NCBI GenBank assembly: GCA_963836875.1
Contig: CAWIKZ010000004.1
Coordinates: 48,387 to 112,386, forward strand
Length of the DNA: 64,000 bases
Direction of reading: 5' to 3'
DNA from: an uncultured Acidobacteriaceae bacterium
Lineage (GTDB): Bacteria > Acidobacteriota > Terriglobia > Terriglobales > Acidobacteriaceae
The translations under genes and the position numbers were made by a program. The notes below the pieces were generated by a model, which made no database searches, was not told the DNA's origin, and saw only the letters and a program-made list of their open reading frames with translations. This document shows positions 36,108-52,589 of the stretch, piece by piece. Numbering within the stretch: position 1 is the stretch's first letter; every line of letters starts with the position of its first letter.

Positions 36108-36124
36108 AGTTGCCTCCAGTTTCT

Positions 36125-36502
36125 TTAGCTGGCTCCCGCCACCATGAATTTGGCCTTGCTGCCTACCAGATCTTCCTTCTTCAAGGGATATCCAGCGATG
36201 ATTTTGCCCCGCACATTACGTTTCATTGGGATGGGCTTACAAACAGCGTCCTTGCGAGCGCGCGGCGCCGGACGGGTCAGCCCAGGACCAGAGATGGCGG
36301 AATAATCCTGCCGCTCCGCGAAGCCGGGCAACAGGTCGGCGGTGCCGCTGGCCTCCTTGGGGCCGGCCACGCCGATTCCATTCACGACCTCGATATACCA
36401 GATCGTAGCGCATTCGGCACACTTAGTGGTGCCCTTGAAGTTCCAAAAGGGGTAGGGATCAAGGAAATTCTTAGTCTTACACTTGGAGCATGTGAGCAAC
36501 AT
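36125..36502 (-). CDS. hypothetical zinc-ribbon protein
   Basis: MLLTCSKCKTKNFLDPYPFWNFKGTTKCAECAT = CxxC...CxxC ribbon. Basic/disordered middle and conserved-looking tail RNVRGKIIAGYPLKKEDLVGSKAKF. Lies 12 nt downstream of the CoA-transferase stop. Confidence 0.5.
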   Translation of the reverse strand: MLLTCSKCKTKNFLDPYPFWNFKGTTKCAECATIWYIEVVNGIGVAGPKEASGTADLLPGFAERQDYSAISGPGLTRPAPRARKDAVCKPIPMKRNVRGKIIAGYPLKKEDLVGSKAKFMVAGAS

Positions 36503-36514
36503 AGTTGTTCTCCG

Positions 36515-37879
36515 TCAGATGCACTCTTGGTCTTCCAGCCGTTTAATATCGTCAGGCGTCAGTCCGGCAAGCTTGCCGAAGATGTACTCGTTATCGGCGC
36601 CCACCGGTTTCAGGGCCCATTTGAGCCGGGGCGGAGTCGCCGACATTTTGTACGCCGGCCCCTGGTGCAACAGTTCACCGTACGTCGGGTCATCCAGCCA
36701 GCGAACCGCTCCCCGCTCATTCCAATGCGGATGTTCGGCGACTTCTTTGGCGTTCCATACCGGCTGGTTAATGATGTTGTTCGCATCCATGATGGCGGCC
36801 ACCTGTTCCTTGGTCTTGTCGGCCGCCCACTTCTCCAGGGCCGGATAAATCTCCATCTGGCTCTCGGCCTTGACGCGAATATCGGCCTTGGCGTACTTGC
36901 CGGCCAAGGTGGTGTCGCCAATGGCCTTGCATAGGCGGGCAAAGTCCTTGTCCGCAGACGCGCTGATCAGGATATAACCTTCTTCCATCTCTTGCGGATT
37001 CTCAGAGTTGGGATAGGAGGACTTGCCGCACTTGATGATGCCATGCACGCAAAGCTGCGTGTCCCAGTTGCCCCATCGTTCACGAGTGATACCGTGCTTG
37101 CCGTAGAGCGGCAAAGCATACTCCAGTTGGCGGGTGACACCGTGCACCTGCGAATACTCGGTAAAGGTGCCTTCGCCGGACACGTGATCACGCCAATACA
37201 GCGCCGCTAAGACTTGGGTCGCGCCCATCATGCCGCCCCAGTAATCGGCCAGCCAAATGGTGTGCTTCGCGGGAGCGCCGCCGAGAAACTCCTGCTTGCC
37301 GGTCATACCGAAGTTGCCGCCCTGCGACTGACCCAGAATGTCGTAGGAGGCGCGTACGCGTCCCGGACCCCAGCCGCCAAACCCACCCAGCCAGCAGTAG
37401 ATGAGCCGGGGATTGATCTCCTTCAACTGGCGGTATCCGATGCCCCAACGGTCGAAGGTGCCGGGGCGGTAATTCTCCACAAAAACATCTGATTTCGCAG
37501 CCAGGTTCTTAACGAGGTCCTGGCCTTCTTTCTTGTGAAAGTCGATCGAGACGAAGTGCTCGTTCGGGTTGGCGCCCAGAAAGCCGAGTCCGGTGCCGCG
37601 CTCTGGTACCCACTTGGAAAGCGGATACAGGAATGGCTCATTAAATGGCGTGGTATGGCGCATGGCCTCGCCCCGCCGCGGCGCTTCGATCTTGATGACT
37701 TCAGCGCCAAGTTCGGCCAAATAGGATGCGCAGGAGGGGCCCAAAATATACTGCGTACAAGACAACACTCGGTAGCCCTTCAGCACTTCCGGTTTCGCAA
37801 ATTCTTTCTTGGGATTGAAGGTCTCCCGGCAATACGCCTCAAAGTTCTGCGGCTTGGTAGTGGGTTGCGTTGCCATCAC
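36515..37879 (-). CDS. family III (CaiB/BaiF) CoA-transferase, large form, paralog B
   Basis: LKGYRVLSCTQYILGPSCASYLAELGAEVIKIEAPRRGEAMR (N-terminal Rossmann-like CoA site), VENYRPGTFDRWGIGY, INPRLIYCWLGGFG. Confidence 0.85.
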   Translation of the reverse strand: MMATQPTTKPQNFEAYCRETFNPKKEFAKPEVLKGYRVLSCTQYILGPSCASYLAELGAEVIKIEAPRRGEAMRHTTPFNEPFLYPLSKWVPERGTGLGFLGANPNEHFVSIDFHKKEGQDLVKNLAAKSDVFVENYRPGTFDRWGIGYRQLKEINPRLIYCWLGGFGGWGPGRVRASYDILGQSQGGNFGMTGKQEFLGGAPAKHTIWLADYWGGMMGATQVLAALYWRDHVSGEGTFTEYSQVHGVTRQLEYALPLYGKHGITRERWGNWDTQLCVHGIIKCGKSSYPNSENPQEMEEGYILISASADKDFARLCKAIGDTTLAGKYAKADIRVKAESQMEIYPALEKWAADKTKEQVAAIMDANNIINQPVWNAKEVAEHPHWNERGAVRWLDDPTYGELLHQGPAYKMSATPPRLKWALKPVGADNEYIFGKLAGLTPDDIKRLEDQECI

Positions 37880-37891
37880 ATTCCTCCTGCG

Positions 37892-39298
37892 TCAAATGAC
37901 GTTCGCCTTCTGCAGCCGCTCGAAATCGTCACGCGTGAAGCCGAGCAGACTGCGATATGTATCCTGGTTGTCGTAGCCGGTGGGCCGGCCCATCCACTTC
38001 AGCCGCCCAGGAGTCTTATGTTGCAGGTAAGGAGTGGTGCCGTAGAGGATCTTCCCATAGTGCGGCGAGTCGTACTCGGCCACGTGCCCGCGATATTTAA
38101 AGTGCGGGTATTCGGCCACCTCGTTCACATAGAGCACGCCGCCGGACGCCACTTGCTGTTTGCCAAGTTTGGCTTCGGCTTCACTGCGAGAGTTGTCTTT
38201 CAGCCACTCGCCCAGCATAGTGTAAGTCTTGACCTGCATATCGTGACCCAGCCGGTCGGCCACCTCGCGCAGGTGGGGATCGCCGAGGATGTCCTCTTCG
38301 ACCTTGGGCTGCTCGTCGCCCACGGTACGCCAGATGCGGTACCACAAGCGGTCGTGGCCGCCTCCCACCATCATGTAGCCGTCTTTGCAGGGGTTCACGG
38401 CGTAAATGTTGATGGCCAAGTCCCAGTTGCCGTAGCGCGGACGAATGCTGCCGTCCATCGAGTACCACGCCCAACTATAATCGAGGATGCGGATGATGGC
38501 TTCGGCGGCCGTAGCTTCGACAAACTGGCCCTCGCCAGAAATGTTTTCCCGATAGATGAGGGCCGCCAGGATGCCCATGGCCGCTGAACTTCCGCCTACG
38601 TGGTCGGCCATCCACAGAGCAGAGCGCGTGGGTTGTCCGCCGAACTCCTTGGGATCACCGGTGCCGTGGACAAATCCGCAGGCTGCCTGGGCCACCGGAT
38701 CCAGCATTCCCGGTTGGTCCTTGAGGGGGCCCCACTGTCCGCGCTGGCCCACCCAGCAGTAAATCAGCCGGGGATTAATTTCGCGCAACTGGCGATAACC
38801 GATGCCCCAACCGTCCCACTGTCCCGGCGGTGCATTCTCGATGATCACGTCAGCGTGGACCGCGAGGTCCTTGAGAATCTGCCGGCCCTCTTCGGTTTCC
38901 AGGTTCAGGGTGATGGAGGATTTGTTGCGCATTTCGTGGAGAAACTGTGCGCCGACTTTCTCCCCAGTTTGCTTGTCCTCGAACATGTACTCTTGCCGGC
39001 CAAAGGGCGTGAGCTGGCGCAACGGGTCACCGCCCGGAGGCTCGACCTGGATGACCTCGGCGCCCAGTTCGGCCAGTTGCGAGGAGCACCAATGGCCAAT
39101 CATCATTCGGGTGCTGCAGTCCAACACACGAAAACGGGAAAGCGCTTCCGGTTTTTCGAAATTATGTTCCTGGCGCGTGATCGATTCCAGGAAAAGCGGG
39201 TACTCCTTGGCTTGGTCACTCAGCCCGGCGTACACCTCTTCGGGTTTGAGTTTGGGAATCGCTGGCCAAGCTGCGACCTTGTCTTGAGCTGCTGCCAT
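37892..39298 (-). CDS. family III (CaiB/BaiF) CoA-transferase, large form, paralog A
   Basis: LSRFRVLDCSTRMMIGHWCSSQLAELGAEVIQVEPPGGDPLRQ, IENAPPGQWDGWGIGY, INPRLIYCWVGQRG. Colinear with 36515..37879; 12-nt spacer. Confidence 0.85.
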   Translation of the reverse strand: MAAAQDKVAAWPAIPKLKPEEVYAGLSDQAKEYPLFLESITRQEHNFEKPEALSRFRVLDCSTRMMIGHWCSSQLAELGAEVIQVEPPGGDPLRQLTPFGRQEYMFEDKQTGEKVGAQFLHEMRNKSSITLNLETEEGRQILKDLAVHADVIIENAPPGQWDGWGIGYRQLREINPRLIYCWVGQRGQWGPLKDQPGMLDPVAQAACGFVHGTGDPKEFGGQPTRSALWMADHVGGSSAAMGILAALIYRENISGEGQFVEATAAEAIIRILDYSWAWYSMDGSIRPRYGNWDLAINIYAVNPCKDGYMMVGGGHDRLWYRIWRTVGDEQPKVEEDILGDPHLREVADRLGHDMQVKTYTMLGEWLKDNSRSEAEAKLGKQQVASGGVLYVNEVAEYPHFKYRGHVAEYDSPHYGKILYGTTPYLQHKTPGRLKWMGRPTGYDNQDTYRSLLGFTRDDFERLQKANVI

Positions 39299-39546
39299 GT
39301 GTGTGGCCTCCTAATACCGGTGGTAGGTGAGTTGCCACCAAAACGAGTGCTGTCCACTATATCTCGGGCGAAGGGCCGTTGGAAGCTAATAAAACGCTTG
39401 CAGTTTCAAACGGGGCCTGACACTTCCATTCGAAATCGTATTCACGCCGGCTTCGAGTCGCGCATTTGCCGCCGGACTCTATCCGTTGAAAATCAAACTC
39501 TTTGTCAATTGGGGGCAGATTATCTTATGCGGCTGAGAGCCCCGTC

Positions 39547-39562
39547 TGTGACTGCGGTCACA
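39547..39562. promoter_or_regulatory. perfect CRP-consensus palindrome TGTGA-CTGCGG-TCACA
   Basis: Lies in the 307-nt gap between the amidohydrolase stop (39606) and the CoA-transferase start (39298), about 250 nt upstream of the latter. Confidence 0.4.
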
Positions 39563-39605
39563 TTCGTCGGTGAGTTGCGACCAACTGGCGAAAAGCCGGT
39601 TGCCC

Positions 39606-40451
39606 TCAATCCGGCCAGATGGTAAGCGCCACTTGGCCGAGAATGAGCCGCTTGGTTTCCGCCGACAATGGCAACGCCCGGAAGGAGTCGAGGGCTTCCT
39701 TGATCTCGTGCACACCTGGCCCTGGCCAGTCGCTGCCGAAGAGCGTTTTGTGGGCGATCTCTTCCAGGCGAGGAAAGTACTGCAGCAGGTGAACCGGCGG
39801 AATGCTGCTGATGTCCAAATAAACATTGGCATGGCGGCGTACCAGGAAAAAGGCGGTGCTCATCCAGAGAGGCCGGCCTCCATGGGCAAGCACAATCTTC
39901 AGGTGCGGGAAATCGACGGCTACATCGTCGACGTGGATCGGGTCTCCGTACTTGTTGCGCGCCCCAGGAAAGATTGAGGTGCCGGTGTGAAACATAATGG
40001 GGATGCCGTGGCTCTGCGCTGCTCGGTACAACAGCTCCAGCTCTTTCAAACCATTGCGGTAGTCGTTGGGGTAGAAGAGTTGATGCGGGGGATGGATCTT
40101 GATCAGCCGCAAACCCAGCCGGACTATCTCATCGATGTCCGCCATGGCATTGGTCGAGTACCGCGGATGGAAGCCGCCACAGGAGAGGAGCCGCCGAGGG
40201 GCCGCCTTGGCATAGTCTGCGGCCATGGCGTTAAGTCCAGCGGGAAAGCCGGTGACATCGGGCGCGGCCGCGTTGATCAGCACGGCGCGGTCCAGCCCGG
40301 CCTCGTCCATGTATTTCAGAAAAGCTTTGGGCGAGCGGGTGAACTCCAAGACCCGATCGAAATCGGGCTGATGCTTTTTCATGAGCTCCAGGGCCGGGGG
40401 GTTCAGCAGGAGTTCGAACGGCTGGATATGGACGTGGCAGTCGGTGATCAA
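39606..40451 (-). CDS. amidohydrolase-2 family metal-dependent hydrolase/decarboxylase (ACMSD/LigW/LigI superfamily)
   Basis: MITDCHVHIQP (HxH metal motif), IPIMFHTG, KIVLAHGGRP, LFGSDWPG (terminal Asp). Confidence 0.8.
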   Translation of the reverse strand: MITDCHVHIQPFELLLNPPALELMKKHQPDFDRVLEFTRSPKAFLKYMDEAGLDRAVLINAAAPDVTGFPAGLNAMAADYAKAAPRRLLSCGGFHPRYSTNAMADIDEIVRLGLRLIKIHPPHQLFYPNDYRNGLKELELLYRAAQSHGIPIMFHTGTSIFPGARNKYGDPIHVDDVAVDFPHLKIVLAHGGRPLWMSTAFFLVRRHANVYLDISSIPPVHLLQYFPRLEEIAHKTLFGSDWPGPGVHEIKEALDSFRALPLSAETKRLILGQVALTIWPD

Positions 40452-40697
40452 GGAACTTGCCTGGGTCTTGTCTGGTAACGTGAGCGGGTTACAGGATCCG
40501 GGTGACCGGATCCTGCCCGGTCATGCATCTACAGGTGCGGAAGCCAAGTGCAGCAGCGGCATGGGAGAAATGGCTCTCATCCCCCCAAACCTATCGCGAC
40601 CCTTGGCGCCCGGTTTGAAAGCTCCTGTCGGCGACGCGATGTGGCCATTCTTGAGCACATCCACCAAGTCACTCAGGAGGCCAGCGGAATTGCCTCC

Positions 40698-41015
40698 TCA
40701 AGCCGCCTTGCCGCTTACGATCTTGTGGCAGGTCGAGGTCTGCACGTCGAAGGCATGTACCTTGGGCTTGCTGTGCACCAAATGTTGAATCAATTCGGCG
40801 ACCTTGGCGTAATCTTCATGGGTGTAACGTTCGGCATCCTCCTTCGTCTTCCAGAAGCTTTGTGCCAGGATGCCTTCCGCATCCGACACCAGTACGATTT
40901 CATCTACAAAGCCTGTCTGCGCTTTTAACGTAGACAGCACCTTCTCATGCAGCACGCTGCAAACCTCTTTGGCTTTCCCAGGCTTAGTCTTGACTTCCAC
41001 AACACGAACAAACAT
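40698..41015 (-). CDS. ABM/Dabb-fold (antibiotic-biosynthesis-monooxygenase-like) small protein
   Basis: ORF 40698..41219; ATG 41015: MFVRVVEVKTKPGKAKEVCSVLHEKVLSTLKAQTGFVDEIVLVSDAEGILAQSFWKTKEDAERY. This is a ferredoxin-like beta-alpha-beta pattern of about 105 aa. Confidence 0.55.
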   Translation of the reverse strand: MFVRVVEVKTKPGKAKEVCSVLHEKVLSTLKAQTGFVDEIVLVSDAEGILAQSFWKTKEDAERYTHEDYAKVAELIQHLVHSKPKVHAFDVQTSTCHKIVSGKAA

Positions 41016-41110
41016 GGCAGATCTCCTTTTGATCGAAGTATGAAGGCTAACAACCGTCCATGAATAACGACGGTTGGAAAACGGACGCCGGCCTCGCGCT
41101 GCGCGCTTTC

Positions 41111-42082
41111 TTAGGCCGGTTGCGGCACCGGTTGACGCGCCTCGTTCAGCAGCACCAGAGTCATATTGCCGCGCCGGCTGTCGCGCTCCGCCCGGATGGC
41201 TTCCAGCCGTAAGCGCCACGGGTCAAGATCGAAAGGCTGATCCGCGGGCTTCGCCAGGCACGCGTCAATAAGCTCGCGGTAGAAGCGCACAATGCTGGCC
41301 ACCAAGGGCACAGGATACTCACGCCCCTGGATCTTCAGGCAGTGGACCCCCAGATCAATAAGCGCCGGGATATCGTCCAGGTAAAAGAAGGCGTCATTCT
41401 TGAGCGCGATTTGCGGTTCCAGCAGCGCTTCGCCATCGAACAGCTCCCACTGTTCCAGGCAGACGCGGTAATCCAGGCCGCCGCGGTTGGGGCTGCCGCG
41501 GAACAAGTCCTTGCCGAAGTTGTCGGTGGTCCGCTCCAAGCGGTGATAGGGTGACATCCAGCACTTGCCCAGGTAGGTGTAGCAGTTGTTGGCGTGGATG
41601 AGGACTTCGATGCCCGCATCCAGCTCCGCCTGGCGCGCCACCAGCTCGCGGAAGGTGAGCTTGGTGTCGGCCACTACTTGTGAGACCCCAATTGAGCGAT
41701 AGAACTTCACGTCCTGGTTGTTGACAATGTTGGCCCCAATGCTGGCGTGCAGCACAAGATGGGGAAACCGGCGGTGCACCTGCGCCATGGCGCCCACGTC
41801 GGTCATGATCGCTCCGTCCACGCCCCAGCCAACGAACTTGTCCATCTTCTGCAGCAACGAGGGGATTTCGCACGACTGCATGTTGGTATTGATAGCGACA
41901 CGCAGCTTGGCCCCGCCGGCGTGGGCGATTGCGATGGCTTCATGCAATTGCTCATCGGCCAGTTCGTAGGCATCGCGCCTCCGGCTCCAGCCCCGTGCCC
42001 CGACATAGATCGCATTGGCGCCGTTTTCCACGGCGGCCTTCACCATCTCCAGGTTTCCTGCCGGTGCTAATAGCTCAACCAT
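41111..42082 (-). CDS. peptidase-U32-family protein (UbiU/UbiV/TrhP/RlhA-type), copy C
   Basis: ATG 42082 follows GAGGTG: MVELLAPAGNLEMVKAAVENGANAIYVGARGWSRR (canonical U32 N-terminus). TIM-barrel-like repeats and a central Cys cluster (NNCYTYLGKCWMSPYH...RVCLEQW). Confidence 0.85.
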   Translation of the reverse strand: MVELLAPAGNLEMVKAAVENGANAIYVGARGWSRRRDAYELADEQLHEAIAIAHAGGAKLRVAINTNMQSCEIPSLLQKMDKFVGWGVDGAIMTDVGAMAQVHRRFPHLVLHASIGANIVNNQDVKFYRSIGVSQVVADTKLTFRELVARQAELDAGIEVLIHANNCYTYLGKCWMSPYHRLERTTDNFGKDLFRGSPNRGGLDYRVCLEQWELFDGEALLEPQIALKNDAFFYLDDIPALIDLGVHCLKIQGREYPVPLVASIVRFYRELIDACLAKPADQPFDLDPWRLRLEAIRAERDSRRGNMTLVLLNEARQPVPQPA

Positions 42083-42106
42083 CACACACCTCGAAATACG
42101 CAAGAA

Positions 42107-43039
42107 CTAACCGCAGGCCGCGATTGCTTCCACGCGTTTGCCGACATACTCGCTGCCGGTGCGGCCGAAATAAAAACCGTTGCACAAACCCACCGCCGTA
42201 TGCTCGCGGATCGCCTGCCACGCTGACTCGTCCACCGTCCCATCACCGGCGACGGCGCTCTCCAGCGCGGCGCGATAGACCTGTCCTATCTGAAGACGGT
42301 ACGCGGGTGTCTCGTAGGCCGCCTCGATCCGGAACACCCTATGGCCGGCGGCCACCAGGGCCGGTAGATGCTCGAGCATGCATAAGTCCTTGCCGCTCAG
42401 CACCCCCTTGCCCACCGACCGCATGGCCCAGTTACCCTGTTTGAGGAACAACTGTTTTTGGCAGAGCACCGGGCATTTCTCCGGCCAGTGCTGCTCATAC
42501 TCCAGCAAGAAGCAGTAATCGGAGACCCCCAGCGGCATCTTGCCATGGACCTGGATCTCTGCCGGCATACCGGCGCCACGGGTAATGGATTCCACTTCGT
42601 CCAGGCTGATCTCGTAATTTGGCGTGAAGCGCACCGCGCCATACTCCTTCAGCACCTCGGCCCCGGCGTCGGTGTACACGTTGGCAAATCCGCCGACGTG
42701 TGCCGCCATTCCGGGAAACTGCTCGTGGACCATGCGCAGCACGCCGAGGTTATGCACCTCGACCGCGTCGGCGCCGGCCGCAGCCGCGGTCTCCAGAGCC
42801 ATCTGCACTTTGGGCAGCGCGTCATTCCTCGGCGCAGCGTACGAGGTCACATAGGCCCGCAAGCCCTGGTCCTTTACCCGCGCGATGCCTTCCTTAAGGT
42901 CATCCGTGCGCTCCAGAAAATTGTCCTCGAAGAGGCGGCAATAAATGTTGCCCAGGTACACCGCGTCATAAGCGCTCAGGTCCGATTCCAGCAAGCTGCG
43001 CAGGTTGGAGATTGTCGTATTTAGTTCGACGCTACCCAT
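42107..43039 (-). CDS. divergent peptidase-U32-like protein, copy B
   Basis: Same size and periodicity as the neighbours (AVYLGNIYCRLF, ADAVEVHNLGVLRMV, IQVHGKMPLGVSDYCFLLEYEQHWPEKCPVLCQKQ). The start abuts the stop of copy A (43040). Confidence 0.65.
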   Translation of the reverse strand: MGSVELNTTISNLRSLLESDLSAYDAVYLGNIYCRLFEDNFLERTDDLKEGIARVKDQGLRAYVTSYAAPRNDALPKVQMALETAAAAGADAVEVHNLGVLRMVHEQFPGMAAHVGGFANVYTDAGAEVLKEYGAVRFTPNYEISLDEVESITRGAGMPAEIQVHGKMPLGVSDYCFLLEYEQHWPEKCPVLCQKQLFLKQGNWAMRSVGKGVLSGKDLCMLEHLPALVAAGHRVFRIEAAYETPAYRLQIGQVYRAALESAVAGDGTVDESAWQAIREHTAVGLCNGFYFGRTGSEYVGKRVEAIAACG

Positions 43040-43930
43040 TCAACGTCCTTGTACAGTCCACATGGCCGGCAGTCTAGGTGGGTCCCATTCGCCCTTTTGC
43101 CCGCACTTCCAGGCATCCGCAGCCGAACGGTATATCCCGATGATAACACTCACCATCTCCGCCGAAAGGCTGCGCCCCTGGATTTTAATTACGTCCACCC
43201 CCGCATCGAGGAAGGCTGCCAGTTCGGCCACCCGGCTGATCTGGCGGCTGGGAAACAAGCGCTGGTCAGCCTCAACTCCATCGTTCAGCAGCGTCCATGG
43301 CTGCTGGCAGATGCGGAAGCAAGTGCCGACTCCGCCCCGTTTGACGCTGCCGCCCAGGCGTTGCGCAGGAAAGATCCGGTCGGCCGCGGCGAAGTGTACA
43401 TAACTTGGCATCCAGCACTTCCCCAGTTGAATGAACTCTTGCACCATGTGCAGCATGACCTCGACCTGGATCGAAGCCTTGGCCTTGATGGCCGCGATTT
43501 CCTCCGGTTCGAGATACCCTGGCAGGACAATCGCAGTTGCGCCCAGGTCCTGGTAAAAAAGGGCGTCGTCGGTATTCAGCGCACCGCAGCCAATGCTGGC
43601 CGTGATGGCCAATCCCGGCAGTTTCCGCCTGACTTCGCGCAGAAACCCGGCGTCGTTCAGGATCACTGCCTGCAGTCCCCAGTCCGCCAATTCGGACAGT
43701 TGCTGCAGCAGCCGTTGGCGCTCCGGCGGCTTGGGAATGATGTTTGCCGCAAGTTGCACCCTTTTGCCGAGCGCGTGAGCCAGTTCGATGCACTGCCGCA
43801 ACTGCTCACGATCAAATTCGCCTCGCGCGCCGCCACGGCTCCAGCCCTTTAGTCCCACGTACACCGCGTCCGCGCCTGCCTGAAACGCCTGCTTGGCCGC
43901 CTCGAGATTGCCGGCAGGAGCCAGCAGCAT
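43040..43930 (-). CDS. peptidase-U32-family protein, copy A
   Basis: ORF 43040..44098. ATG 43930 gives the canonical MLLAPAGNLEAAKQAFQAGADAVYVGLKGWSRGG. Cys cluster LGKCWMPSYVH...GVGTCFRICQQPW. Alternative starts are 44020 and 44098. Confidence 0.8.
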   Translation of the reverse strand: MLLAPAGNLEAAKQAFQAGADAVYVGLKGWSRGGARGEFDREQLRQCIELAHALGKRVQLAANIIPKPPERQRLLQQLSELADWGLQAVILNDAGFLREVRRKLPGLAITASIGCGALNTDDALFYQDLGATAIVLPGYLEPEEIAAIKAKASIQVEVMLHMVQEFIQLGKCWMPSYVHFAAADRIFPAQRLGGSVKRGGVGTCFRICQQPWTLLNDGVEADQRLFPSRQISRVAELAAFLDAGVDVIKIQGRSLSAEMVSVIIGIYRSAADAWKCGQKGEWDPPRLPAMWTVQGR

Positions 43931-44207
43931 GGCACACCCCTTGGGCACGTCAATGCCGCAGCCCTGCGCAGTGGAAAGTGGGCTGGCCTGCAAAGGCCCA
44001 TAGCCCGGGATTGGTTCCATACCCAAGTTGGCCCCCAATTGCTCCCTGAGTCTGTGAGTAATGTCACGCCGAGGGGTGACGGCAAACATTGTCACCAATT
44101 CTACCAGTGACTTTGTGCATTTTCAGGCTGGCCCAACATCCCTGCGGCCGCCTTCTTCTACGTGACAGCGAAGACAATTCTCGGCTGGAGTTGCACCGGT
44201 CCGTGGC

Positions 44208-44612
44208 TCAAGAGCTTTGCGCCTGCTTGACGCGCTGCTTCTCTTCGAACCTGCTTTTGCTGACGATGGCCCGCTTGATGGTGCCGTGCCCGATAACCTC
44301 GCTGCCGTCGTGCGCGCTGACCTTGAAGGTGTAGAAGCGGCCATCGAACGACTCCAGCACCGCTTCGGCCTTTACCATGGCGTCGATTCCGCTCGCCGCG
44401 CGATGAGTGACGTTGACCGCCGTGCCGACACTGACCTCATCACCTTCGCAAAACGGCAGCAGCGCGTTGAAGCCCGCTTCCTCCATCCACTTGATCATGT
44501 ATGGAGTCGACAACACCGCAGGAAGCTCCTCTCGGAATGCCGTGAGGGTGTGCTGGAACTGGACCCGCTCTTCCACCTCTCCGCGCGCCCCGATGGGGAC
44601 TGGTTTCGCCAT
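44208..44612 (-). CDS. hotdog-fold acyl-CoA thioesterase, FlK-like family (paralog of 26555..26956)
   Basis: VLSTPYMIKWMEEAGFNALLPF...SVGTAVNVTHRAASGIDAMVKAEAVLESFDGRFYTFKVSAHDGSEVIGHGTIKRAIV. Thr/Glu/His positions are conserved with the other copy. Confidence 0.7.
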   Translation of the reverse strand: MAKPVPIGARGEVEERVQFQHTLTAFREELPAVLSTPYMIKWMEEAGFNALLPFCEGDEVSVGTAVNVTHRAASGIDAMVKAEAVLESFDGRFYTFKVSAHDGSEVIGHGTIKRAIVSKSRFEEKQRVKQAQSS

Positions 44613-44740
44613 CGTTTACAGTGTAGTGCCCGTTTTCTGCGGTGTCACTCCGGTTCGAGTGGAATGTTAGCCAGCACCTCCTCATCGCAAGGCACAGGGA
44701 CCTTCCGGCAGTATGGCTGCACTCAAATGCCGGATGCTCG

Positions 44741-45871
44741 CTAAGACACGCGATCGCCTTTTCGACGGTGAGACGCGCTGGACTTATCGGTCGGTATTCT
44801 CCCTTGAACGATCAAGGCTTCCTCATGGATATGTTCAAAAAGGTCCCGCGCAAAGCTCTCCGATAGAAGGTTCTTAACGCTAGACCGGACCCTATCCTGG
44901 ATTATGTGTTCCCATCTTTCCGGCTGAAACAACGATATATTGTGGGCCCGTTTCCAGGTCCCTATGTGCCGGACACATTCCATTCGTTTGGCCAGAAGTG
45001 CGATCAGATCGTTGTCAATCGCATCGATTTGTTTTCGCAGAAGCTTTATCTCTTGCGGAAGGCGCGCCGGCCCATCGCAGGACACGTAGCGCAGTTTGTT
45101 AATGAGTCTGCCATATTGGAGCGGAGTCAATTGTTGTCTGGCGTCGCTAAGAGAAGCCGGTGGCGCACAGTGGACCTCAATCATCAGACCGTCAAAAAGA
45201 AAGTCGATCGCCTGTTGCGCCAATGCCATGATGTAATTGCGCGTGCCGCAAATGTGGCTAGGGTCGCATATGAGCGGCAGGTCGGGCAGCCGTCTGCGTA
45301 GCTCGATGGGGATCCTCCAAATAGGCCGATTACGATACAGGTGCTCCCTATAAGTGGAAAAGCCCCGGTGTACCGCCATGATCTTTGTAATTCCGGCTTT
45401 GTTGATTCGTTCGATGGCTCCGATCCATAACTCCAGGTCCGGGTTCATAGGGTTCTTGATCATGACGGGAATGTCCACGCCCCGCAGCGCATCGGCAATC
45501 TCTTGGACCGCGAAAGGACTGGTGGTGGTCCGAGCGCCAATCCACAGAATATCGATCCCAGCTTTCAGACATTCCTCTACATGAGTCGGCTTTGCGGCTT
45601 CTGTAGCCACCGGCAACCCTGCAGCATTCCCCGCCTGTTTTAACCACATCAGCCCTTTCGCCCCAACGCCTTCGAACGAACCGGGACGCGTTCGTGGCTT
45701 CCAGATCCCCCCTCGTATGGCTGTGACTTCGTAGGCTGAGAGCTGCCGGGCCGTCTTCAGCATTTGCTCCTCTGATTCCACACTGCATGGACCGGCGATA
45801 AGGAACTTCTTCCTCACGGGCATGCCCCATTCAGAAAGCGGGTTGATACGCAGATTTGGCTCTGTTGACAT
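44741..45871 (-). CDS. bifunctional 3-deoxy-7-phosphoheptulonate (DAHP) synthase, type I-beta, fused to a C-terminal chorismate mutase
   Basis: ORF 44741..45955; ATG 45871 follows AAGGAGGG. The KDO8PS-like DAHPS core has KFLIAGPCSVES, GGIWKPRTRPGSFEGVG, LICDPSHICG. The C-terminal approx. 90 aa (LRKQIDAIDNDLIALLAKRMECVRHIGTWKRAHNISLFQPERWEHI) match an AroQ-type chorismate mutase. Confidence 0.85.
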   Translation of the reverse strand: MSTEPNLRINPLSEWGMPVRKKFLIAGPCSVESEEQMLKTARQLSAYEVTAIRGGIWKPRTRPGSFEGVGAKGLMWLKQAGNAAGLPVATEAAKPTHVEECLKAGIDILWIGARTTTSPFAVQEIADALRGVDIPVMIKNPMNPDLELWIGAIERINKAGITKIMAVHRGFSTYREHLYRNRPIWRIPIELRRRLPDLPLICDPSHICGTRNYIMALAQQAIDFLFDGLMIEVHCAPPASLSDARQQLTPLQYGRLINKLRYVSCDGPARLPQEIKLLRKQIDAIDNDLIALLAKRMECVRHIGTWKRAHNISLFQPERWEHIIQDRVRSSVKNLLSESFARDLFEHIHEEALIVQGRIPTDKSSASHRRKGDRVS

Positions 45872-46339
45872 GCTAAGTTCCCTCCTTCGCTCCTGTCCCA
45901 GAATTGCAAAGATGGCTGCCGAGGTTTGCCTGAGAGGGCGCGGGATTGTCATCAATCATAAAGGATGCCGTGCGTGGGCCGTGGCACAGAACACAGGATC
46001 AGGCCCACTCTTGAGTGGCTGTGGTGAGGGGAGATATTTTACAGTGGCGGGAAATGGCGGGATTTCGCGGGTTTTGTCGCGCCCGAATTCGGCGAAACTC
46101 GACCTACTTGTGCGGAATTGATTTGCAGTGCCTGGCTGTCGGCAACCGTAACCTATTGAAAAGCCAGCATGGATTTTCGTCCCGGGACCGAGAAATTGGC
46201 AGAGCGTGAAACCCAGGATCCAGTTACGCACTAACTATCTGATTACAAACAGCTTTCATTTGCGGAAAGCTCAGAACTGAGGTACCCAATCAGCGGCAGA
46301 AAAACGGCAGAGATCGAGCTGCGCATTTTGAGGGAGATC

Positions 46340-46612
46340 TTAACTTTCCTCTTGCCCGAGCCCAGCGTGTTTGGCTAGCCTTCCGCGACGACTCGCTGGG
46401 CGGGTTTTTACGTCATGGACTTTGTGGCTTCTAGGAAGGCCGCAAATCCTACAGGTACGAAAGCCAGCAGTTGGCTCGAACGAATGTGGCTTGTCTGACC
46501 CACGCCGTGCCGGCTGCTCTCGCACTTCTGCACCTGGTTTGAAGAGCCAGGCGAGACAACAGAGGGCGGCCACACTCACGATGATGCGCAATATCTTCCC
46601 GCTTGCCCGCAT
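46340..46612 (-). CDS. possible small membrane-anchored hypothetical protein
   Basis: 90-aa ORF with one hydrophobic helix (ILRIIVSVAALCCLAWLF). It lies in the AT-richer island and has no recognisable family, so it could be non-coding. Confidence 0.25.
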   Translation of the reverse strand: MRASGKILRIIVSVAALCCLAWLFKPGAEVREQPARRGSDKPHSFEPTAGFRTCRICGLPRSHKVHDVKTRPASRRGRLAKHAGLGQEES

Positions 46613-46964
46613 CGCTTGGTACCTTCTACTAGAACCCAGCCACTGGCGTTCCTTTCTTCTCCACCGAGCTAGTCAGCCCTTTCCTCGTTTGTCCGTTTTG
46701 GATATTGAGTCTTCGACAGGAGAGCAATGTCAATCCCAGCCTTAGCCCAAAACCACAGGCGCTCCCTGTGGTTCATCAAAACTAAACGCGGCCGAGTCTT
46801 CGATGCAGGAGGCCCTTTCCTTGGAAGGCAGCGCTTTGCATGGCGTGGTCTTCGACCGTTATGAGCATCCCGGAAACGAGAGGGAGAGCTCGACTGTCAG
46901 GATCCGGGCGTGAATCTCCCTCCGATCCTGACAGCGAAGGAGTTTAGTTCGGAGCTGGAAATTG

Positions 46965-48008
46965 TTAGGCCGCGACTGTGTAGCGGTGATGCAGACCACC
47001 GAGTCGCGGCAGAGAGATAACCTTGTGGCCACTCGAATGCGGTGACGCTGCAACTCGACCACCGGGAGTGTTCTTCCCGAGTCCGAGATGAGTCCGGTCC
47101 TCGTGGTAGTAACGGACGTACTCATTCAGCAACCGTCGCAGATGTCTGCGATTCAGCACGATCACATGATCGAGTAAGTCCCGCCGCACACTGCCAACCC
47201 AGCGCTCGGCAATGCCGTTCTGCCAAGGACTGCGGAATGCGGTGCGAATCGGTTGGCTGCCCATCGCCTTCACGGTCGAGACCACATCGGCACTGAACTT
47301 CGCGTCCCGATCAAAGATCAGGAAGCGTTGCGGCTGTTGGCTGTATTCCCAAGTCTCGTGCAACTGCAGGGCAACCCAAAGCGCGTTGGGATTGCGAGTC
47401 ACGTTGCAGTGCAGGATCCGACGCCGGTCGTGGCCGATCACGAAGAAGCAGTACAGAATGCCGAAGGTCACTGTCGGCACCGTGAAAAAGTCCATCGCTG
47501 CGATCGCCTCGCGATGATTACGAAGAAAAATCAGCCAGCGCCTGGCGGGATCGGGAGGTCTTGGGGCTCGCCGAACCCAGCGCGAAACCGTTGGTTCCGA
47601 TAGATCGAAGCCGAGCTTGAGCAACTCGCCGTGAATGCGGGGCGCTCCCCAAGTTGGATTTTCCGCAACCATTTGAAAAATTAAGGCTCGAATCTGTTTG
47701 CTCACCGGCTTTCGACCGCCCCTCGACTTGGCTCTGGAAAGCCATTTCCAATACAGCCGAAAACCGGCACGATGCCAGCCGACAACGGTTCTGGGTGTCA
47801 CCTGGATGAGAGGTTCCTTCCATCGAGCCCAGCACCTTCGCAATACGACCCAGAACAGCTTGTGTGACGCAGTGAGTCGCCGGCGAGGGCGCTGGGCGTG
47901 AAGAGCCAGCAACTGCTGACGCAGGGCAAGATTTTCGAGGATGATATCCTCGCGGGACCTGAATGCACCAACGACCCAGCCGAGGAAGTGCCGGAGCCAT
48001 ACGATCAT
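46965..48008 (-). CDS. DDE (rve/integrase-core) transposase of an IS element (IS481/IS3-superfamily-like)
   Basis: 347 aa and apparently intact. N-terminal ENLALRQQLLAL..RPRR helix, HTH-like FQMVAENPTWGAPRIHGELLKLG, and a catalytic core with DFFTV... / FDRDAKF / SPWQNGIAERW..S.RRDLLDH, tail YYHEDRTHLGLGKNTP. I could not identify the element ends. Confidence 0.8.
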   Translation of the reverse strand: MIVWLRHFLGWVVGAFRSREDIILENLALRQQLLALHAQRPRRRLTASHKLFWVVLRRCWARWKEPLIQVTPRTVVGWHRAGFRLYWKWLSRAKSRGGRKPVSKQIRALIFQMVAENPTWGAPRIHGELLKLGFDLSEPTVSRWVRRAPRPPDPARRWLIFLRNHREAIAAMDFFTVPTVTFGILYCFFVIGHDRRRILHCNVTRNPNALWVALQLHETWEYSQQPQRFLIFDRDAKFSADVVSTVKAMGSQPIRTAFRSPWQNGIAERWVGSVRRDLLDHVIVLNRRHLRRLLNEYVRYYHEDRTHLGLGKNTPGGRVAASPHSSGHKVISLPRLGGLHHRYTVAA

Positions 48009-48403
48009 GCCCAGAATCTTACCGGAACGTTGTCAATCGAGCTTGCTGCCAAGTCATTGATATTGCGGGTGTACGATGTTTTGATGAATGACAGGAGAAG
48101 GCAATCCGAAGAGACTAATCGAGGCTGCAAGTCTCGCCTTTTCAAACCGATCGAATTTCTTGACCATACGGGTAATTGATACGCTCGGCAGGCTGCGGAC
48201 CGCTCAGTTGATGACAACTCCTTCCGCTGTGCAATAACTCTCAAACGGGTAATCCGAGTTTGCCCGAAATACTTGACTCCCCGAAATAACACGTTGCAGC
48301 CGGAGTCGGAGATGCTGCCCCCGAGATTATGCCTTGGCCACCTTCATTCGGAAGTAGTGGCGAAGGATCGTGGAATGCTTCCGAAAGAAGCCGACGGACC
48401 CCA

Positions 48404-50371
48404 CTAATCAGAATCCGCAACCCGCGCCGGCCAATGTTCGGGAACAAGCGCGTGGGAATCGTCGCCCGTCCAGGGTTCAGGCTCCACAAGTGACTGCTGA
48501 AACCGCTCCTCGGGCAGATTCGCGTGCTCCAGCACAATAATCTGAAACTGCCCCTTCAAGTCGTCGCACGCCGTCCATAGTAACTCGAACATTCGTCTGA
48601 CCGCCTCCAAGTCCGCATCAGCATTGACGGTTTCCTGTGTGCCACCGGACAGTGATTTGTACTGCTGAAGCGACGGGAAATATACCTGCGTAGGTTGATC
48701 CAAGACAAGAAAGGCAGGTACTGGGCAGTTCGCAGCGACGAAGTAATAGTGCAGAGCAAGCAGCGAGATTAAGTGGCAACCCAACCAGTTTTGACCGCCA
48801 CCCATCCTCTGCATGGGAATTGGACGTCCCGGGCGGTCCACCACGACAGTGAGGCCGTTGATATCCAACCGGTACGGCCCCTTGTGCTCTAGGTCTAACC
48901 ATTCCGCCCATTTCGTCATTTGGCCGCCGATGCTGTTGAGCGCAGAAGACAAGAGTTCGTCGGAATCGACGTCCAGTAACGCGGTGAGGCGGGCAACCTC
49001 GGCGCTGGCTTCCTTCACCGCCCTCTGTAGCCGTTCATCCGGATGCGACAGTCGGAATGTCTCTAGGTACAGGCTAATGCGCCCGACCACTCGGGCGGCC
49101 CTCGAGTTCGCGTCTCGCAAGGCCTCCCCCGCCTCATCTTCAGCGACGGCCGCTTGCAGTGCAAACTCCGCCTCGGTGATCGTCTGACGCGCAGTATCTC
49201 TTTCCGTTTTCAACGTCTCGATGTATTCAGTCAATCGAGGTTGCTCAGCTTGCACTTGGTCGAGGTCAGTCCTTAAATGCTGTAGGCTCTGAACTATCGA
49301 TGCCACATTTGGGACCTCAGCACCGAGCTCGGCTGCGCACAACGGGCATTGGTGAACGGGCTGATCGGGATCAAAAAGCTCTATGGACCGTAAACGCATG
49401 AACTGTTCACCCGCTTGGCTCGCGTAGCCCTGAGAGTCCTTTTCAAACACCTGCGCCGCTTCGAGCTGCCTGGTGACATGCCTGACACGGTCCCGGCTCT
49501 GATCTACGTTGCGACGTAGCTCAGTGAGCCTCTCCGTCTCTATCGGCGGTGCGGACGGCTTCCACCTCATTACGCCGTCCAACAGGCGAAGCACATCCTC
49601 AAATGACCCTACATCTGGGGCCCCAGTCAAAATTCCTGCCTGCTCAGCCTCCTCAATCAGTGCACGGCCCCTCGTTAACTGATCCGCAGCCACAAACTGC
49701 GCCTCATCCAGGTCACGCTGGGCGACCTTCAGCTTGCGCCGAGCCAATCTCAGATCTTGCTCCACGGCAACCCGCTCTGCACTGACTGTTCCCAAGAAAT
49801 ATGGCAGGGTGTCCTTGATCGCCTGCGGCATGAACTCTTCAACCTGCCGATAGAAAAGAAGATCTTTGTTTGCGATCAGGCTCTGATTCTGGAACAGATA
49901 GTAGTCGGTGTGCTTGACAGTGGCTTCGAGTTGTTCGCGCGTTTGACCCGGCCCAGGAATGTGCAGGTTGGGAGAGATTCCCAAGCGTCTGGATAACTCC
50001 GCCTGCACGCCGTCGTCGTTTGTGTTCGGAGACAGTCTCGAGAGTTCTGGGGGTACCAGTGCGGTGCCGATCTCGATGTATGCTTGGCTCTGGCTCTTGG
50101 CGTTCGCTTTCGGGACTGGTTTTGCAATCAGCACCTCGGTGTCCTCACCAAAGGCGAAGATGACTGCGAACCATGCAACTTTCTCGCGCACTACGCCTTC
50201 GTAAACTCCAAAAGTTGAGTACCCAAGACAGTAATGAATGATCTCAATGACTGACGATTTCCCCGTGAGTGATTTGCCCGTGATGATGTTGACGTCGCCA
50301 TAGTTGAAGTTCAACTCGCGAGTTTCTCCAGTATGGCTATACAGGACGATTGATCGTATCTGCATCGTCAT
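48404..50371 (-). CDS. DUF3732-type SMC/Rad50-like ABC ATPase (ABC-3C system ATPase component)
   Basis: ORF 48404..50386 (GTG). The in-frame ATG 50371 overlaps the upstream stop (ATGA). Walker A VNIITGKSLTGKSSVIEII, a long helical/coiled-coil middle (about residues 200-480), and C-terminal PVPAFLVLDQPTQVYFP (Walker B/D-loop) plus FQIIVLEH. Confidence 0.8.
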   Translation of the reverse strand: MTMQIRSIVLYSHTGETRELNFNYGDVNIITGKSLTGKSSVIEIIHYCLGYSTFGVYEGVVREKVAWFAVIFAFGEDTEVLIAKPVPKANAKSQSQAYIEIGTALVPPELSRLSPNTNDDGVQAELSRRLGISPNLHIPGPGQTREQLEATVKHTDYYLFQNQSLIANKDLLFYRQVEEFMPQAIKDTLPYFLGTVSAERVAVEQDLRLARRKLKVAQRDLDEAQFVAADQLTRGRALIEEAEQAGILTGAPDVGSFEDVLRLLDGVMRWKPSAPPIETERLTELRRNVDQSRDRVRHVTRQLEAAQVFEKDSQGYASQAGEQFMRLRSIELFDPDQPVHQCPLCAAELGAEVPNVASIVQSLQHLRTDLDQVQAEQPRLTEYIETLKTERDTARQTITEAEFALQAAVAEDEAGEALRDANSRAARVVGRISLYLETFRLSHPDERLQRAVKEASAEVARLTALLDVDSDELLSSALNSIGGQMTKWAEWLDLEHKGPYRLDINGLTVVVDRPGRPIPMQRMGGGQNWLGCHLISLLALHYYFVAANCPVPAFLVLDQPTQVYFPSLQQYKSLSGGTQETVNADADLEAVRRMFELLWTACDDLKGQFQIIVLEHANLPEERFQQSLVEPEPWTGDDSHALVPEHWPARVADSD

Positions 50372-50859
50372 GGACGAATTCCCCACATCGCGTAAATCGT
50401 CCGAACGTCGCCTGCACCGCTAAACCAGCGTCCGACGAAATGCGCCTGCTTCAGACACTCTGCTACTTCGGTGTGGGAACCCCAGAGCTTCGGCTGATTG
50501 CCGAGTGGGGGCGCCGTAATGAGTCCAGCCTCGGTGAACGCGAGAAGAGCGCGGGTGCAACCGAAGAGAGTCGCTTCGCGGTAATACGGGACCAAAGCGG
50601 CGCACCGCTGCGCGAATCCGATTCTTACATCCTGATGCTCCTGAAGCCACGGATGCATCTTGGTACTTATTTTCGCAGGGAGCAGTTCCCGAGTGAATTT
50701 ATGAAGGACGATCGGGAGCAACAGAGCCAATAATGGATAAGGAATGCCCTCGGGGTTCTTCTGAACGAATCCCTTTACACATTCCCTCAACAGCAGCGCA
50801 CAGAAGGCCGGGTTCAGCAATGTTGCAACTTCTACCGGACGCTTTGACCACGGTTTCAT
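50368..50859 (-). CDS. ABC-3C 'middle component'-like helical adaptor protein
   Basis: 163 aa, predicted all-alpha (LLNPAFCALLLRECVKGF..., PYPLLALLLPIVLH). Sandwiched with 2-nt and -4-nt junctions between the effector and the ATPase, the signature position of ABC-3C middle components. Confidence 0.6.
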   Translation of the reverse strand: MKPWSKRPVEVATLLNPAFCALLLRECVKGFVQKNPEGIPYPLLALLLPIVLHKFTRELLPAKISTKMHPWLQEHQDVRIGFAQRCAALVPYYREATLFGCTRALLAFTEAGLITAPPLGNQPKLWGSHTEVAECLKQAHFVGRWFSGAGDVRTIYAMWGIRP

Positions 50860-50861
50860 GA

Positions 50862-52049
50862 TTATGTGCCGACGTTACTCGCGACGATAGCGGAAATCCT
50901 TTCCAAGAATTTTGGGTGCCACCAAACCCGGGGCGGAGTCGCGTTTGCAAGGATGTGATAGCTTCCCCGCATAACATAAGCAGCTGCGACGTCGGGCCGG
51001 ATTCGATAATCGGCCTCCAGATCCACCCAGTTGAAGATACTTCTGCCCGCTTCGCGCAATACCTCTTCGCTTGCGCTTTCACTCAGGTCGGCGGCTACCG
51101 CTTCGGCAAATCTCTCCCATTCATCAATCAGAGTCTCTTCGTACTTTTCAATCTTGCCACCTATCAGCAGTTCGTCTTTTGCCCAGCGCGACCGCTGCTC
51201 GAACGCCCGATAATAATCGAGGATCGCCTTCTCGATGCGCTTCAGGCCAACATCAATATCCCGAAGTTGCTTCACGAATGTCCTATCATCCCCGCCTGGA
51301 TCGATGGTGTCTGGTTCCGCCCTCAGAAAGTCGATCGGAAGCGCGCTTGGGCCGAACTGATCTGCGATGCTCCTAACCATGTCCGAAACTTCGAACCCGG
51401 TCACCGGACGAGCATCCTTAGCGAGAAACTGTCCAGCAACTCTCTCGAACCACCACCCCTCGAGCCGTTGCAAAACCGCGGTTCGGTAGTCCCGGTCAAC
51501 GGCAAGTCGAATCTTCTCTTCGATCTTCACACGAACATCAGCGATGTCGGGCGACTTGTCTAGGGTCGAGATAGCGTTGATGAGTCTGGTCCGCTGGTCA
51601 TCGCTGAGCGCGGCAAAGGCTGTAAACGACGCCTGTAATTTCTCGTTCTTAGATTCGCGAGCAACCTTGAGAAGCGCGGCAGTTATACAATCAGCTTCCC
51701 GTTGTGCGTTTGGGCGCAGAAGCGATGCGATTGACCCTTGCGGTGCCGTCCCAGTTGTTACCAGCGTCAAGGTCATCGGAGGGATTGAAATGGCACCGGT
51801 CCTCAGATGATCGCTCCAGATGCGAAGAGTCTTCCAGAGATCAGGCGAAAAATCCGTCAGCACAGCAGCATTAATGTGGTGCTTCGTTTGGACGAGGCCA
51901 GCGGAGCCGGCGGAGCTTTCCACAACAATGTCATCCAGGCTTTCGAGAACCAGTTGCTGATCTTCCGGGCCCTCCAGCAATTGCCAGAGGGCGTACCGAG
52001 CTTGATACCAATATCCAAGCGCCGGCTCTTTCGCAGAGAAATCAGTCAT
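50862..52049 (-). CDS. ABC-3C effector: N-terminal Cap4/DUF4297-like PD-(D/E)xK nuclease + conserved ABC-3C C-terminal domain
   Basis: GYWYQARYALWQLLEG...LVLESLDDIVVES...GLVQTKHH fits the DUF4297/Cap4 endonuclease motif layout (E..DD...E...Q.K). The C-terminal half (FVKQLRDIDV..., YYRAFEQRSRW, AAYVMRGSYHILAN...VWWHPKF) resembles the CTD shared by ABC-3C effectors. Confidence 0.7.
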   Translation of the reverse strand: MTDFSAKEPALGYWYQARYALWQLLEGPEDQQLVLESLDDIVVESSAGSAGLVQTKHHINAAVLTDFSPDLWKTLRIWSDHLRTGAISIPPMTLTLVTTGTAPQGSIASLLRPNAQREADCITAALLKVARESKNEKLQASFTAFAALSDDQRTRLINAISTLDKSPDIADVRVKIEEKIRLAVDRDYRTAVLQRLEGWWFERVAGQFLAKDARPVTGFEVSDMVRSIADQFGPSALPIDFLRAEPDTIDPGGDDRTFVKQLRDIDVGLKRIEKAILDYYRAFEQRSRWAKDELLIGGKIEKYEETLIDEWERFAEAVAADLSESASEEVLREAGRSIFNWVDLEADYRIRPDVAAAYVMRGSYHILANATPPRVWWHPKFLERISAIVASNVGT

Positions 52050-52353
52050 GACTGGTATCAGGCTCGCATCTACAACTAACGCCCAAAGGTTGGGTGAGCA
52101 TTGAGGCCGGGCGTGGCCACCTCTTGCACCACCCGTCGATGCAGTTCGTGGCTAAGTTGCGAAGGTACCAAGGATTCGTTGGCGAAGCAATTGGCGATTG
52201 GTGTTCAAGCGCTGTCGATGAATATATCGGACTCTACAACCGGCCCGATTAACAGCCAGACAGTTATCACGTTTTCATCACAGTTAAGCCCGCATTCTGT
52301 GCCGCGCAGACGAAAAGGCAGATCTTAGCCCGAGGCAAATTGCTGAAAACAAA

Positions 52354-52443
52354 TGGCGGAAGCGTGTGCGAGTCGAACGCACCATTGACATCGAAGATGC
52401 CAATCGCCGGTTTTGAAGACCGCCTGTTCCCGAGCAAGCCTCC
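52354..52443 (-). tRNA. tRNA-like gene with UCA anticodon (candidate tRNA-Sec / non-canonical 'allo-tRNA'-like or decayed selC)
   Basis: Minus strand: GGAGGCTT-GC-TCGGGAACA-GGCGGT-CTTCAAA-ACCGGC-G-ATTGGCATC-TTC-GATGTCAAT-G-GTGCG-TTCGACT-CGCAC-ACGCTTCC-G-CCA. It has an 8-bp acceptor stem, a 5-bp T-stem, a long variable arm, a CUUCAAA loop (anticodon at 52414-52416) and an encoded CCA. The D-arm region is too short for a canonical fold. Confidence 0.55.
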
Positions 52444-52589
52444 GCCCCTTGATCCTGTGGTTGACCTGCCGACACTGCAAAATAATTCAAATTCGCTGCA
52501 AGGCAATTCAAACATTACTGCGATTGAATTCCAACAATTACAGTGGCGCCACGGGAAGTCGCGGCTTCAGCGTGTAAAATCGCAGTCTA

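Follow-up and report, generated by a model that had tools for sequence, protein, structure and literature searches.

At the right edge of a small mobile islet, the DNA of an uncultured Acidobacteriaceae bacterium carries on the minus strand a sequence (52443-52354) which folds much like a selenocysteine transfer RNA (tRNA-Sec) with a UGA-reading anticodon. Is this a gene, and if so of which kind? The stretch analyzed, hereafter the window, is 64,000 nucleotides (nt) long and spans positions 48387-112386 of contig C4 (CAWIKZ010000004.1), in a whole genome of 3.95 Mb in 9 contigs (GCA_963836875.1; G000). The original prediction, made from the letters of the window alone, left room for a genuine selC gene with an unusual D-arm, for a degraded selC remnant at an integration junction, and for a relative of the allo-tRNAs. 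As judged from sequence comparisons, the locus is probably a non-functional mosaic generated by recombination at tRNA-derived attachment (att) sites, found at the right edge of a 6.4-kb islet made up by a non-coding region (Z), an insertion sequence (IS) and a Lamassu defence operon. It is most likely an ordinary by-product of island integration, of a kind already known, and not a new kind of tRNA.

The candidate reads GGAGGCTTGCTCGGGAACAGGCGGTCTTCAAAACCGGCGATTGGCATCTTCGATGTCAATGGTGCGTTCGACTCGCACACGCTTCCGCCA. Its acceptor stem (GGAGGCUU/ACGCUUCC) is paired at 7 of 8 positions, one being a G-U pair, and interrupted by one U-C mismatch; the T arm is GUGCG-UUCGACU-CGCAC, with a 5-base pair (bp) stem; the variable arm (AUUGGCAUC/GAUGUCAAU) is 9 bp long; the discriminator is G (G73), and CCA is encoded. 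All these features had been correctly read from the minus strand in the original prediction, as had the anticodon loop CUUCAAA. The UCA anticodon in a 7-nt loop, the long variable arm and the 13-bp acceptor/T branch (8/5, or 9/4 in the Rfam alignment) are those of a tRNA-Sec. The anticodon stem carries a G-G mismatch, also noticed before, and the stretch between acceptor and anticodon stems, estimated at about 11 nt, counts 12 (GCUCGGGAACAG), too few for a D-arm. The 6-bp stem and 4-nt loop of the tRNA-Sec D-arm are missing whatever the method, as Rfam deletes most D-arm columns, ARAGORN draws a single pair, and the minimum free energy fold has none. When folded with ViennaRNA (z = -2.8) the acceptor helix, which can be extended to 11-12 bp by GGC/GCC, the variable arm and the T arm all form, the anticodon stem is weak, and no D-arm is seen. 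Neither a sigma-70-type promoter nor a terminator was detected around the locus by promoter and terminator scans.

Two of the tools proposed along with the original prediction, ARAGORN and the Rfam tRNA-Sec model (RF01852), do recover the candidate. ARAGORN calls it tRNA-SeC(tca) at 52358-52448, and with 47.5 bits it lies just above the gathering score of RF01852, which is 47. On the same model the range for genuine selC genes is 66-69 bits, out of reach of the candidate, while plain partial selC copies present in relatives score 24-29 bits and the ordinary tRNA-Ser(UGA) of this genome 45.3 bits. In a control in which the selC-like block of the candidate was fused to random genomic flanks, ARAGORN reported a tRNA-SeC in 16% of 20,000 fusions; it made no call on any of four plain partial selC copies. 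Calls by tRNA finders are weak evidence at this locus. Being mostly genuine tRNA sequence, the candidate gets through ARAGORN and, barely, through a covariance model.

The 3' 64-70 nt of the candidate are selC sequence. From CGGTCTTCAAAACCGG to CCA the block is 94% identical to the selC gene found on contig C1 of the same genome, with unrelated sequence before, and 98-100% identical to selC of other species of the genus; identity may reach 5 nt beyond the limit given in Table 1, to 52422 (CGGTC). By these alignments the similarity is clearly above chance. The T arm is identical to that of the genome's real selC. The variable arm is GCATC-TTC-GATGT, an allele that other species in this genus carry, and not GCGCC-TTGC-GGTGT as in the genome's own selC; the block is therefore foreign. 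In 24 relatives, all matches to a 121-nt query begin at query positions 39-42, within the anticodon stem/loop, and homology to their selC genes starts only there and does not cover the whole gene. The 27 full-length selC genes extracted from relatives all have a near-invariant 5' part (GGAAGCGAAGGGGGTCCGGTGACTCTCC, with a few substitutions at most), unlike that of the candidate.

Several relatives carry extra partial copies of selC, in which identity starts at the TC-TTCAAAA boundary and is preceded by unrelated DNA. The candidate block starts at the same point and extends from the anticodon loop to the 3' end, as att copies of tRNA genes do. About 16 of 20 residues immediately past the CCA match the sequence downstream of selC in two relatives (G003 and G015), alignments reaching query position 119, and in G003 a tyrosine integrase gene of the Phage_integrase family lies directly downstream of genuine selC. 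The selC gene is an integration hot spot in the genus. In another relative (G017:C1:1034689-1059040) genuine selC is followed 24 kb downstream by two partial copies 260 nt apart, a layout which suggests tandem island accretion at selC.

The 5' third of the candidate has a different origin. Directly 5' of it lies R, a repeat that most of the genus keeps upstream of murJ and that is found in multiple copies at many other loci. After several R copies comes a piece of tRNA-Pro(CGG), its 3' part reaching from the anticodon stem through CCA, complete in G056, decayed in G043, G053 and G018. This looks like the layout expected for an att junction of a tRNA-Pro-targeting element, R and the tRNA-Pro part resembling the arm and the core, respectively, of the att site of an element family to which no integrase could be linked here. 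Fragment P1 (CACAGGATCAAGGGG-CGGAGG) belongs to the same series, found in G056, G043, G053, G018, G049 and G042, and matches tRNA-Pro(CGG) positions 36-54 at 15 of 18 aligned residues (p=0.008). Its last five residues, GGAGG, correspond to the tRNA-Pro T-stem and are at the same time positions 1-5 of the apparent acceptor stem. Fragment P2 aligns with positions 28-49 of tRNA-Pro(CGG), with a core of 14/16 (p=0.0008), and shares with the tRNA-Pro copy of G056 the same GCTCGGGA variant; it is best explained as a putative decayed copy of these positions.

Taken together, the 5' 26 nt show 22/27 identities to tRNA-Pro residues 50-54 joined to residues 28-49 (shuffle p<1/3000), 21 identities over 33 columns, out of register, to positions 1-33 of tRNA-Ser(UGA) (shuffle p=0.001), and 12 identities to positions 1-33 of selC (shuffle p=0.125); the 5' part of selC was rejected as a source on this last value. 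The homologous spots in G049 (murJ locus; GGGGATCGGAGGC) and on contig C3 of G042 (GGGGCGGAAGCC) conform to GGGG(AT)CGGA(G/A)GC, and no tRNA follows. From the tRNA-Pro alignments and these homologous spots, the supposed 5' strand of the acceptor stem is a tRNA-Pro T-stem remnant, and the supposed 5' strand of the anticodon stem a tRNA-Pro variable-loop remnant, which accounts for the G-G mismatch. The view of the locus as a selC remnant at an integration junction is in essence borne out, except that it is not a whole selC in decay, but a chimera of a selC 3' part and tRNA-Pro(CGG) sequences.

The genome has no need of a second selC. A canonical gene at C1:43156-43253 scores 66.2 bits and has a regular D-arm (GGGGUC-CGGU-GACUCU), with a 6-bp stem and a CGGU tetraloop. 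The original prediction had found no selA, selB or selD in the window, correctly, and had called for a search of the rest of the genome, which located selA at C3:571105, selB at C7:452605 and selD at C4:145888-146820. An in-frame TGA interrupts selD, which is probably itself a selenoprotein gene, and another one fdhA, coding for the formate dehydrogenase alpha subunit (C5:1032177-1035389). The two TGA codons confirm what appears to be active selenocysteine usage, served by the canonical selC. The existence of such a gene elsewhere, together with a lack of expression here, had been named in advance as one of the results that would speak against a gene at this locus. A genuine selC with an unusual D-arm is to be discarded also in view of the near-invariant 5' parts of the relatives' genes and of the rarity of the candidate's 5' third. 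With as many as 3 mismatches allowed, 2 of the 90 genus genomes contain this third and no metagenome contig does; diverged copies did not turn up. As a working selC the candidate was rejected for the canonical copy, the missing D-arm and the 5' third unlike selC.

Table 1. Position of the components of the tRNA-like sequence and of the adjoining islet (window coordinates).
Feature	Positions	Strand	Remarks
Dispersed repeat R	52460..52545	-	about 86 nt, three direct units of about 21 nt (TTGAATT..TGCAG)
Fragment P1 (CACAGGATCAAGGGGCGGAGG)	52439..52459	-	decayed remnant of tRNA-Pro(CGG) 3' part
Fragment P2 (CTTGCTCGGGAACAGGCGGTC)	52418..52438	-	at D-arm position; provides 5' strand of the apparent anticodon stem
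selC-derived 3' block	52354..52417	-	anticodon loop (UUCAAAA...) to variable arm, T arm, acceptor 3' strand, G73, CCA
Flank directly after CCA (TTTGTTTTCAGCAATTTGCC...)	52325..52353	-	resembles the 20 nt or so following genuine selC in island-bearing relatives
Lamassu/ABC-3C three-gene defence operon (CTD7 effector, MC3, DUF3732 ATPase)	48404..52049	-	Pfam hits; islet cargo
IS transposase (rve_3/helix-turn-helix) inside the islet	46965..48008	-	Pfam hits; multi-copy in relatives
Region Z, left end of the islet, non-coding	46016..46767	+	ends in 11-nt tandem repeats (ATATCCCGCC-like)

The tRNA-like sequence marks a boundary between two types of DNA. On its 3' side are found the Lamassu operon, the IS transposase gene and region Z, on its 5' side murJ and the genes for a bactofilin and RNase R. 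Exact patterns drawn on the junction, whose unique sequence is GGCTTGCTCGGGAACAGGCGGTC, were detected in one other public genome, the metagenome-assembled genome palsa_340 (Acidobacteriaceae bacterium isolate), and in no metagenome contig and no further public genome. The two genomes are 99.5% identical over 52451-48890, with 17 differences in about 3560 nt, none of them within the tRNA-like part; their core genes share 90-93% identity, and in R 29 of about 115 positions differ. In palsa_340 the islet (also listed as L112, G057:C109) resides at another locus, beside a Z-like region, and a full canonical selC is kept at the locus orthologous to that on C1. The highly conserved segment begins at 52451, immediately 5' of the tRNA-like sequence, and on the other side synteny with G042 (93%), which spans 32500-46015, breaks at 46015 and resumes in relatives at 46015, so that the location at an island border, first proposed from the window alone, holds. 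Such identity indicates a presumably recent horizontal transfer of the Lamassu islet within the genus. From the identity of the islet and its presence in two genomes only, the tRNA-like sequence is the terminal piece of this recently transferred islet, and not a conserved gene.

Region Z has a counterpart of 96-99.5% identity at G042:C10:383032-383804, placed immediately after another copy of R. Contig C3 of G042 has DAHP synthase, a tRNA-Pro remnant, R and Z, and no islet; murJ lies elsewhere in that genome, and the locus therefore does not provide a clean picture of the site before and after insertion. A Z-like copy (84%) is found about 100 nt upstream of a genuine tRNA-Pro(UGG) gene (G000:C2:275969). 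A sequence of about 78 nt next to the IS end (48094-48172) is present in multiple copies in relatives, at 90-95% identity, and may be an IS terminus or a miniature inverted-repeat transposable element.

What the comparisons show is the build of the locus, its sequence relationships, its redundancy beside a canonical selC and its confinement to one island in two genomes. We infer a lack of function, the kind of elements involved, and an order of events in which the mosaic would have been put together from three pieces. R and P1 would represent a junction of the type left by tRNA-Pro-integrating elements, P2 a second and shorter tRNA-Pro(CGG) fragment, and the selC block, reaching from the anticodon loop to CCA, the segment which selC-targeting integrative elements duplicate upon integration. 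The G-rich tRNA-Pro pieces would happen to pair with the acceptor 3' strand and the anticodon-stem 3' strand of selC, and through this chance pairing the mosaic would mimic a D-arm-less tRNA-Sec and be caught by tRNA finders.

Some results sit uneasily with such an origin. Acceptor complementarity in the candidate (7/8, or 10/11 when extended) exceeds that of most random flanks, 7/8 being attained by 3.7% and 10/11 by 0.35% of them, and the covariance score is about 20 bits above that of plain att copies; both features require that chance be invoked once. The rates are uncommon, yet unremarkable for a single junction chosen because it looks like a tRNA. When the window was searched with the last 30 nt of the tRNA, at up to 3 mismatches, the selC block did not turn up a second time, and tblastn over the window, including the 52050-52353 gap, gave no homologue of the integrase residing beside selC in G003. 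The islet looks like what is left of an element after decay or rearrangement, with neither integrase nor partner repeat. The tRNA-like sequence is the same in both genomes, a fact uninformative on selection either way. Finally, tRNA-Pro is not the only conceivable source of P2, as tRNA-Ser(UGA) matches at 11/11 residues over AACAGGCGGTC and at 7/9 at the 5' end.

This last similarity is the ground for viewing the locus as an attL chimera, formed when a selC-specific island took a tRNA-Ser(UGA) copy as secondary attB and entered it at the near-identical anticodon loop. The 5' third would then be the 5' part of tRNA-Ser(UGA), with nucleotides lost afterwards from the D-loop, and the remainder the island-borne selC, the outcome being still a recombination scar. 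Across the anticodon arm AACAGGCGGTCTTCAAAACCG is identical to the genome's tRNA-Ser(UGA) at 20 of 21 residues, the 5' ends (GGAGGCTTG vs. GGAGGGATG) at 7 of 9, the global score against positions 1-33 is significant relative to shuffled sequences, and housekeeping DNA on the 5' side and island DNA on the 3' side fit an attL. The score is nonetheless lower than for the tRNA-Pro model, 7 nt must have been deleted from the D-region, and the sequence upstream belongs to the series of R copies with tRNA-Pro remnants, so that a tRNA-Ser would have to begin exactly at the shared GGAGG; an extra match of 7 nt among about 55 tRNAs is unsurprising by chance. Such an origin is unlikely. Quite improbable is a complete second selC, either a paralogue or island-borne, decayed by internal deletion or replacement of the D-arm. 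The order of acceptor, anticodon arm, variable arm and T arm is kept, and the acceptor 5' strand (GCGGAGGC) differs at one position from that of selC (GCGGAAGC), but alignment of the 5' 26 nt to the 5' part of selC is not significant, the sequence immediately before them carries on the series of tRNA-Pro remnants in place of a selC leader, and the homologous spots of G049 and G042 share GGGGCGGA(G/A)GC with no selC thereafter.

Function is harder to reconcile with the data. The D-arm is the element of tRNA-Sec that is read by SelA, and the identity elements recognized by seryl-tRNA synthetase include the long variable arm, G73 and the acceptor/T branch. No elongator tRNA lacking the D-arm is known from bacteria. 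That the islet carries a functional non-canonical UGA-decoding tRNA, be it a D-arm-less tRNA-Sec-like species or a serine-inserting opal suppressor, is most improbable, although the candidate passes ARAGORN and, marginally, the tRNA-Sec threshold, pairs better than most random flanks, is unchanged in two genomes, and has a 13-bp branch, a long variable arm, G73 and an encoded CCA, all elements used by seryl-tRNA synthetase (see also PMC5389517). Against it stand the absent D-arm, the anticodon-stem mismatch, the canonical selC in both hosts, the lack of a promoter-like site at the locus, the lack of any islet gene requiring UGA read-through, the occurrence in 2 of 90 genomes, and a 5' third recognizably made of fragments of other tRNAs; identity between the hosts only mirrors that of the whole islet. 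Slightly fainter still is the chance that the mosaic is transcribed and matures into a serylated, D-arm-less RNA of tRNA-Sec shape, acting as a weak opal suppressor or as a tRNA-like decoy or regulator which travels with the Lamassu islet; recombination would in that event have built a functional bacterial tRNA out of pieces of three tRNA genes.

Membership in the allo-tRNA family of Acidobacteria is next to impossible. The host is an Acidobacteriaceae, the variable arm is long, the anticodon does not match a sense codon, and the candidate was found by a tRNA-Sec model, as were the first allo-tRNAs (PMC5389517). The definition of allo-tRNAs (Mukai et al. 2017, PMC5389517) asks for an acceptor branch of 12 bp (8/4 or 9/3) together with a long D-stem closed by a tetraloop. 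In the candidate the branch has 13 bp and such a D-stem is missing, its 3' two-thirds are selC itself, and the suggestion that it belongs with the allo-tRNAs fails on both defining features. SelC* tRNA-Cys species have U73 as discriminator (PMC5389517), and were rejected since the candidate has G73.

The genome does encode other unusual tRNAs, all located outside the window. A tRNA of 84-85 nt with a UAU anticodon at C3:431005-431089 (L002 1501-1585, minus strand) is given 52.4 bits by the Rfam tRNA-Sec model. Its acceptor has 8-9 bp and its T stem 4 bp, and the long D-stem, closed by an AGGU tetraloop, is intact. By its predicted fold it fits the allo-tRNA(UAU) group, the one most common in Acidobacteria (Mukai et al., PMC5389517), and with its intact D-arm and 8/4-type layout it looks quite different from the candidate. 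A tRNA-like gene at C3:618363-618441 (L126 215-291, plus strand) has a UUA anticodon, with which UAA stop codons would be read, an 8-bp acceptor (ARAGORN fold) and a T-loop enlarged to 9 nt; it scores 53.1 bits on RF00005 (cut-off 29), and may be an ochre-suppressor-type or allo-like tRNA. ARAGORN also calls as tRNA-Ala three sequences of 88-90 nt (C3:113023-113110, C5:612015-612102 and C3:258173-258262), which have long extra arms and of which two are almost the same. None gives an Rfam tRNA hit at E<=0.1, and they were dropped; most likely they are false positives, or else a repeat that folds like a tRNA.

If the mosaic origin is correct, the locus calls for caution in tRNA annotation. Once joined to other tRNA debris, an att block of the selC type can get through ARAGORN and come out just above the Rfam tRNA-Sec threshold. 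Here as in palsa_340, automated annotation will therefore list a second selC or a suppressor tRNA. In this genus selC and tRNA-Pro(CGG) are recombination hot spots, and tRNA-derived att fragments pile up in tandem at island edges. Expression and charging of the chimera would make it an unusual case of recombination giving rise to a new tRNA; nothing found points in this direction.

Islands and prophages that insert into tRNA genes are bordered by partial copies of the gene (attL/attR), selC being a classic target, as in enterobacterial selC-linked islands. The candidate block resembles such copies because it is the 3' part of a tRNA from the anticodon loop on, is found at a boundary of acquired DNA, and carries a foreign allele, in a genus in which plain partial copies of selC and integrases at selC occur as well. 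It differs in being located away from selC, in having neither integrase nor partner repeat left, and in abutting tRNA-Pro fragments, from which the whole-tRNA-like fold results. With bacterial tRNA-Sec (RF01852) the candidate shares the UCA anticodon, the 8/5-type branch, the long variable arm and G73-CCA, and not the 6-bp/4-nt D-arm, a fully paired anticodon stem, a selC-related 5' third, or a score in the range of genuine genes. The likeness to allo-tRNAs lies in the Acidobacteriaceae host, a tRNA-Sec hit of the false-positive type, the long variable arm and the association with mobile or defence DNA; the 12-bp branch and the long D-stem with its tetraloop are theirs only. Like other chimeric tRNA pseudogenes, the candidate gets past ARAGORN and, by a narrow margin, a covariance model. 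Unlike these, its sources can be named, tRNA-Pro(CGG) twice and selC.

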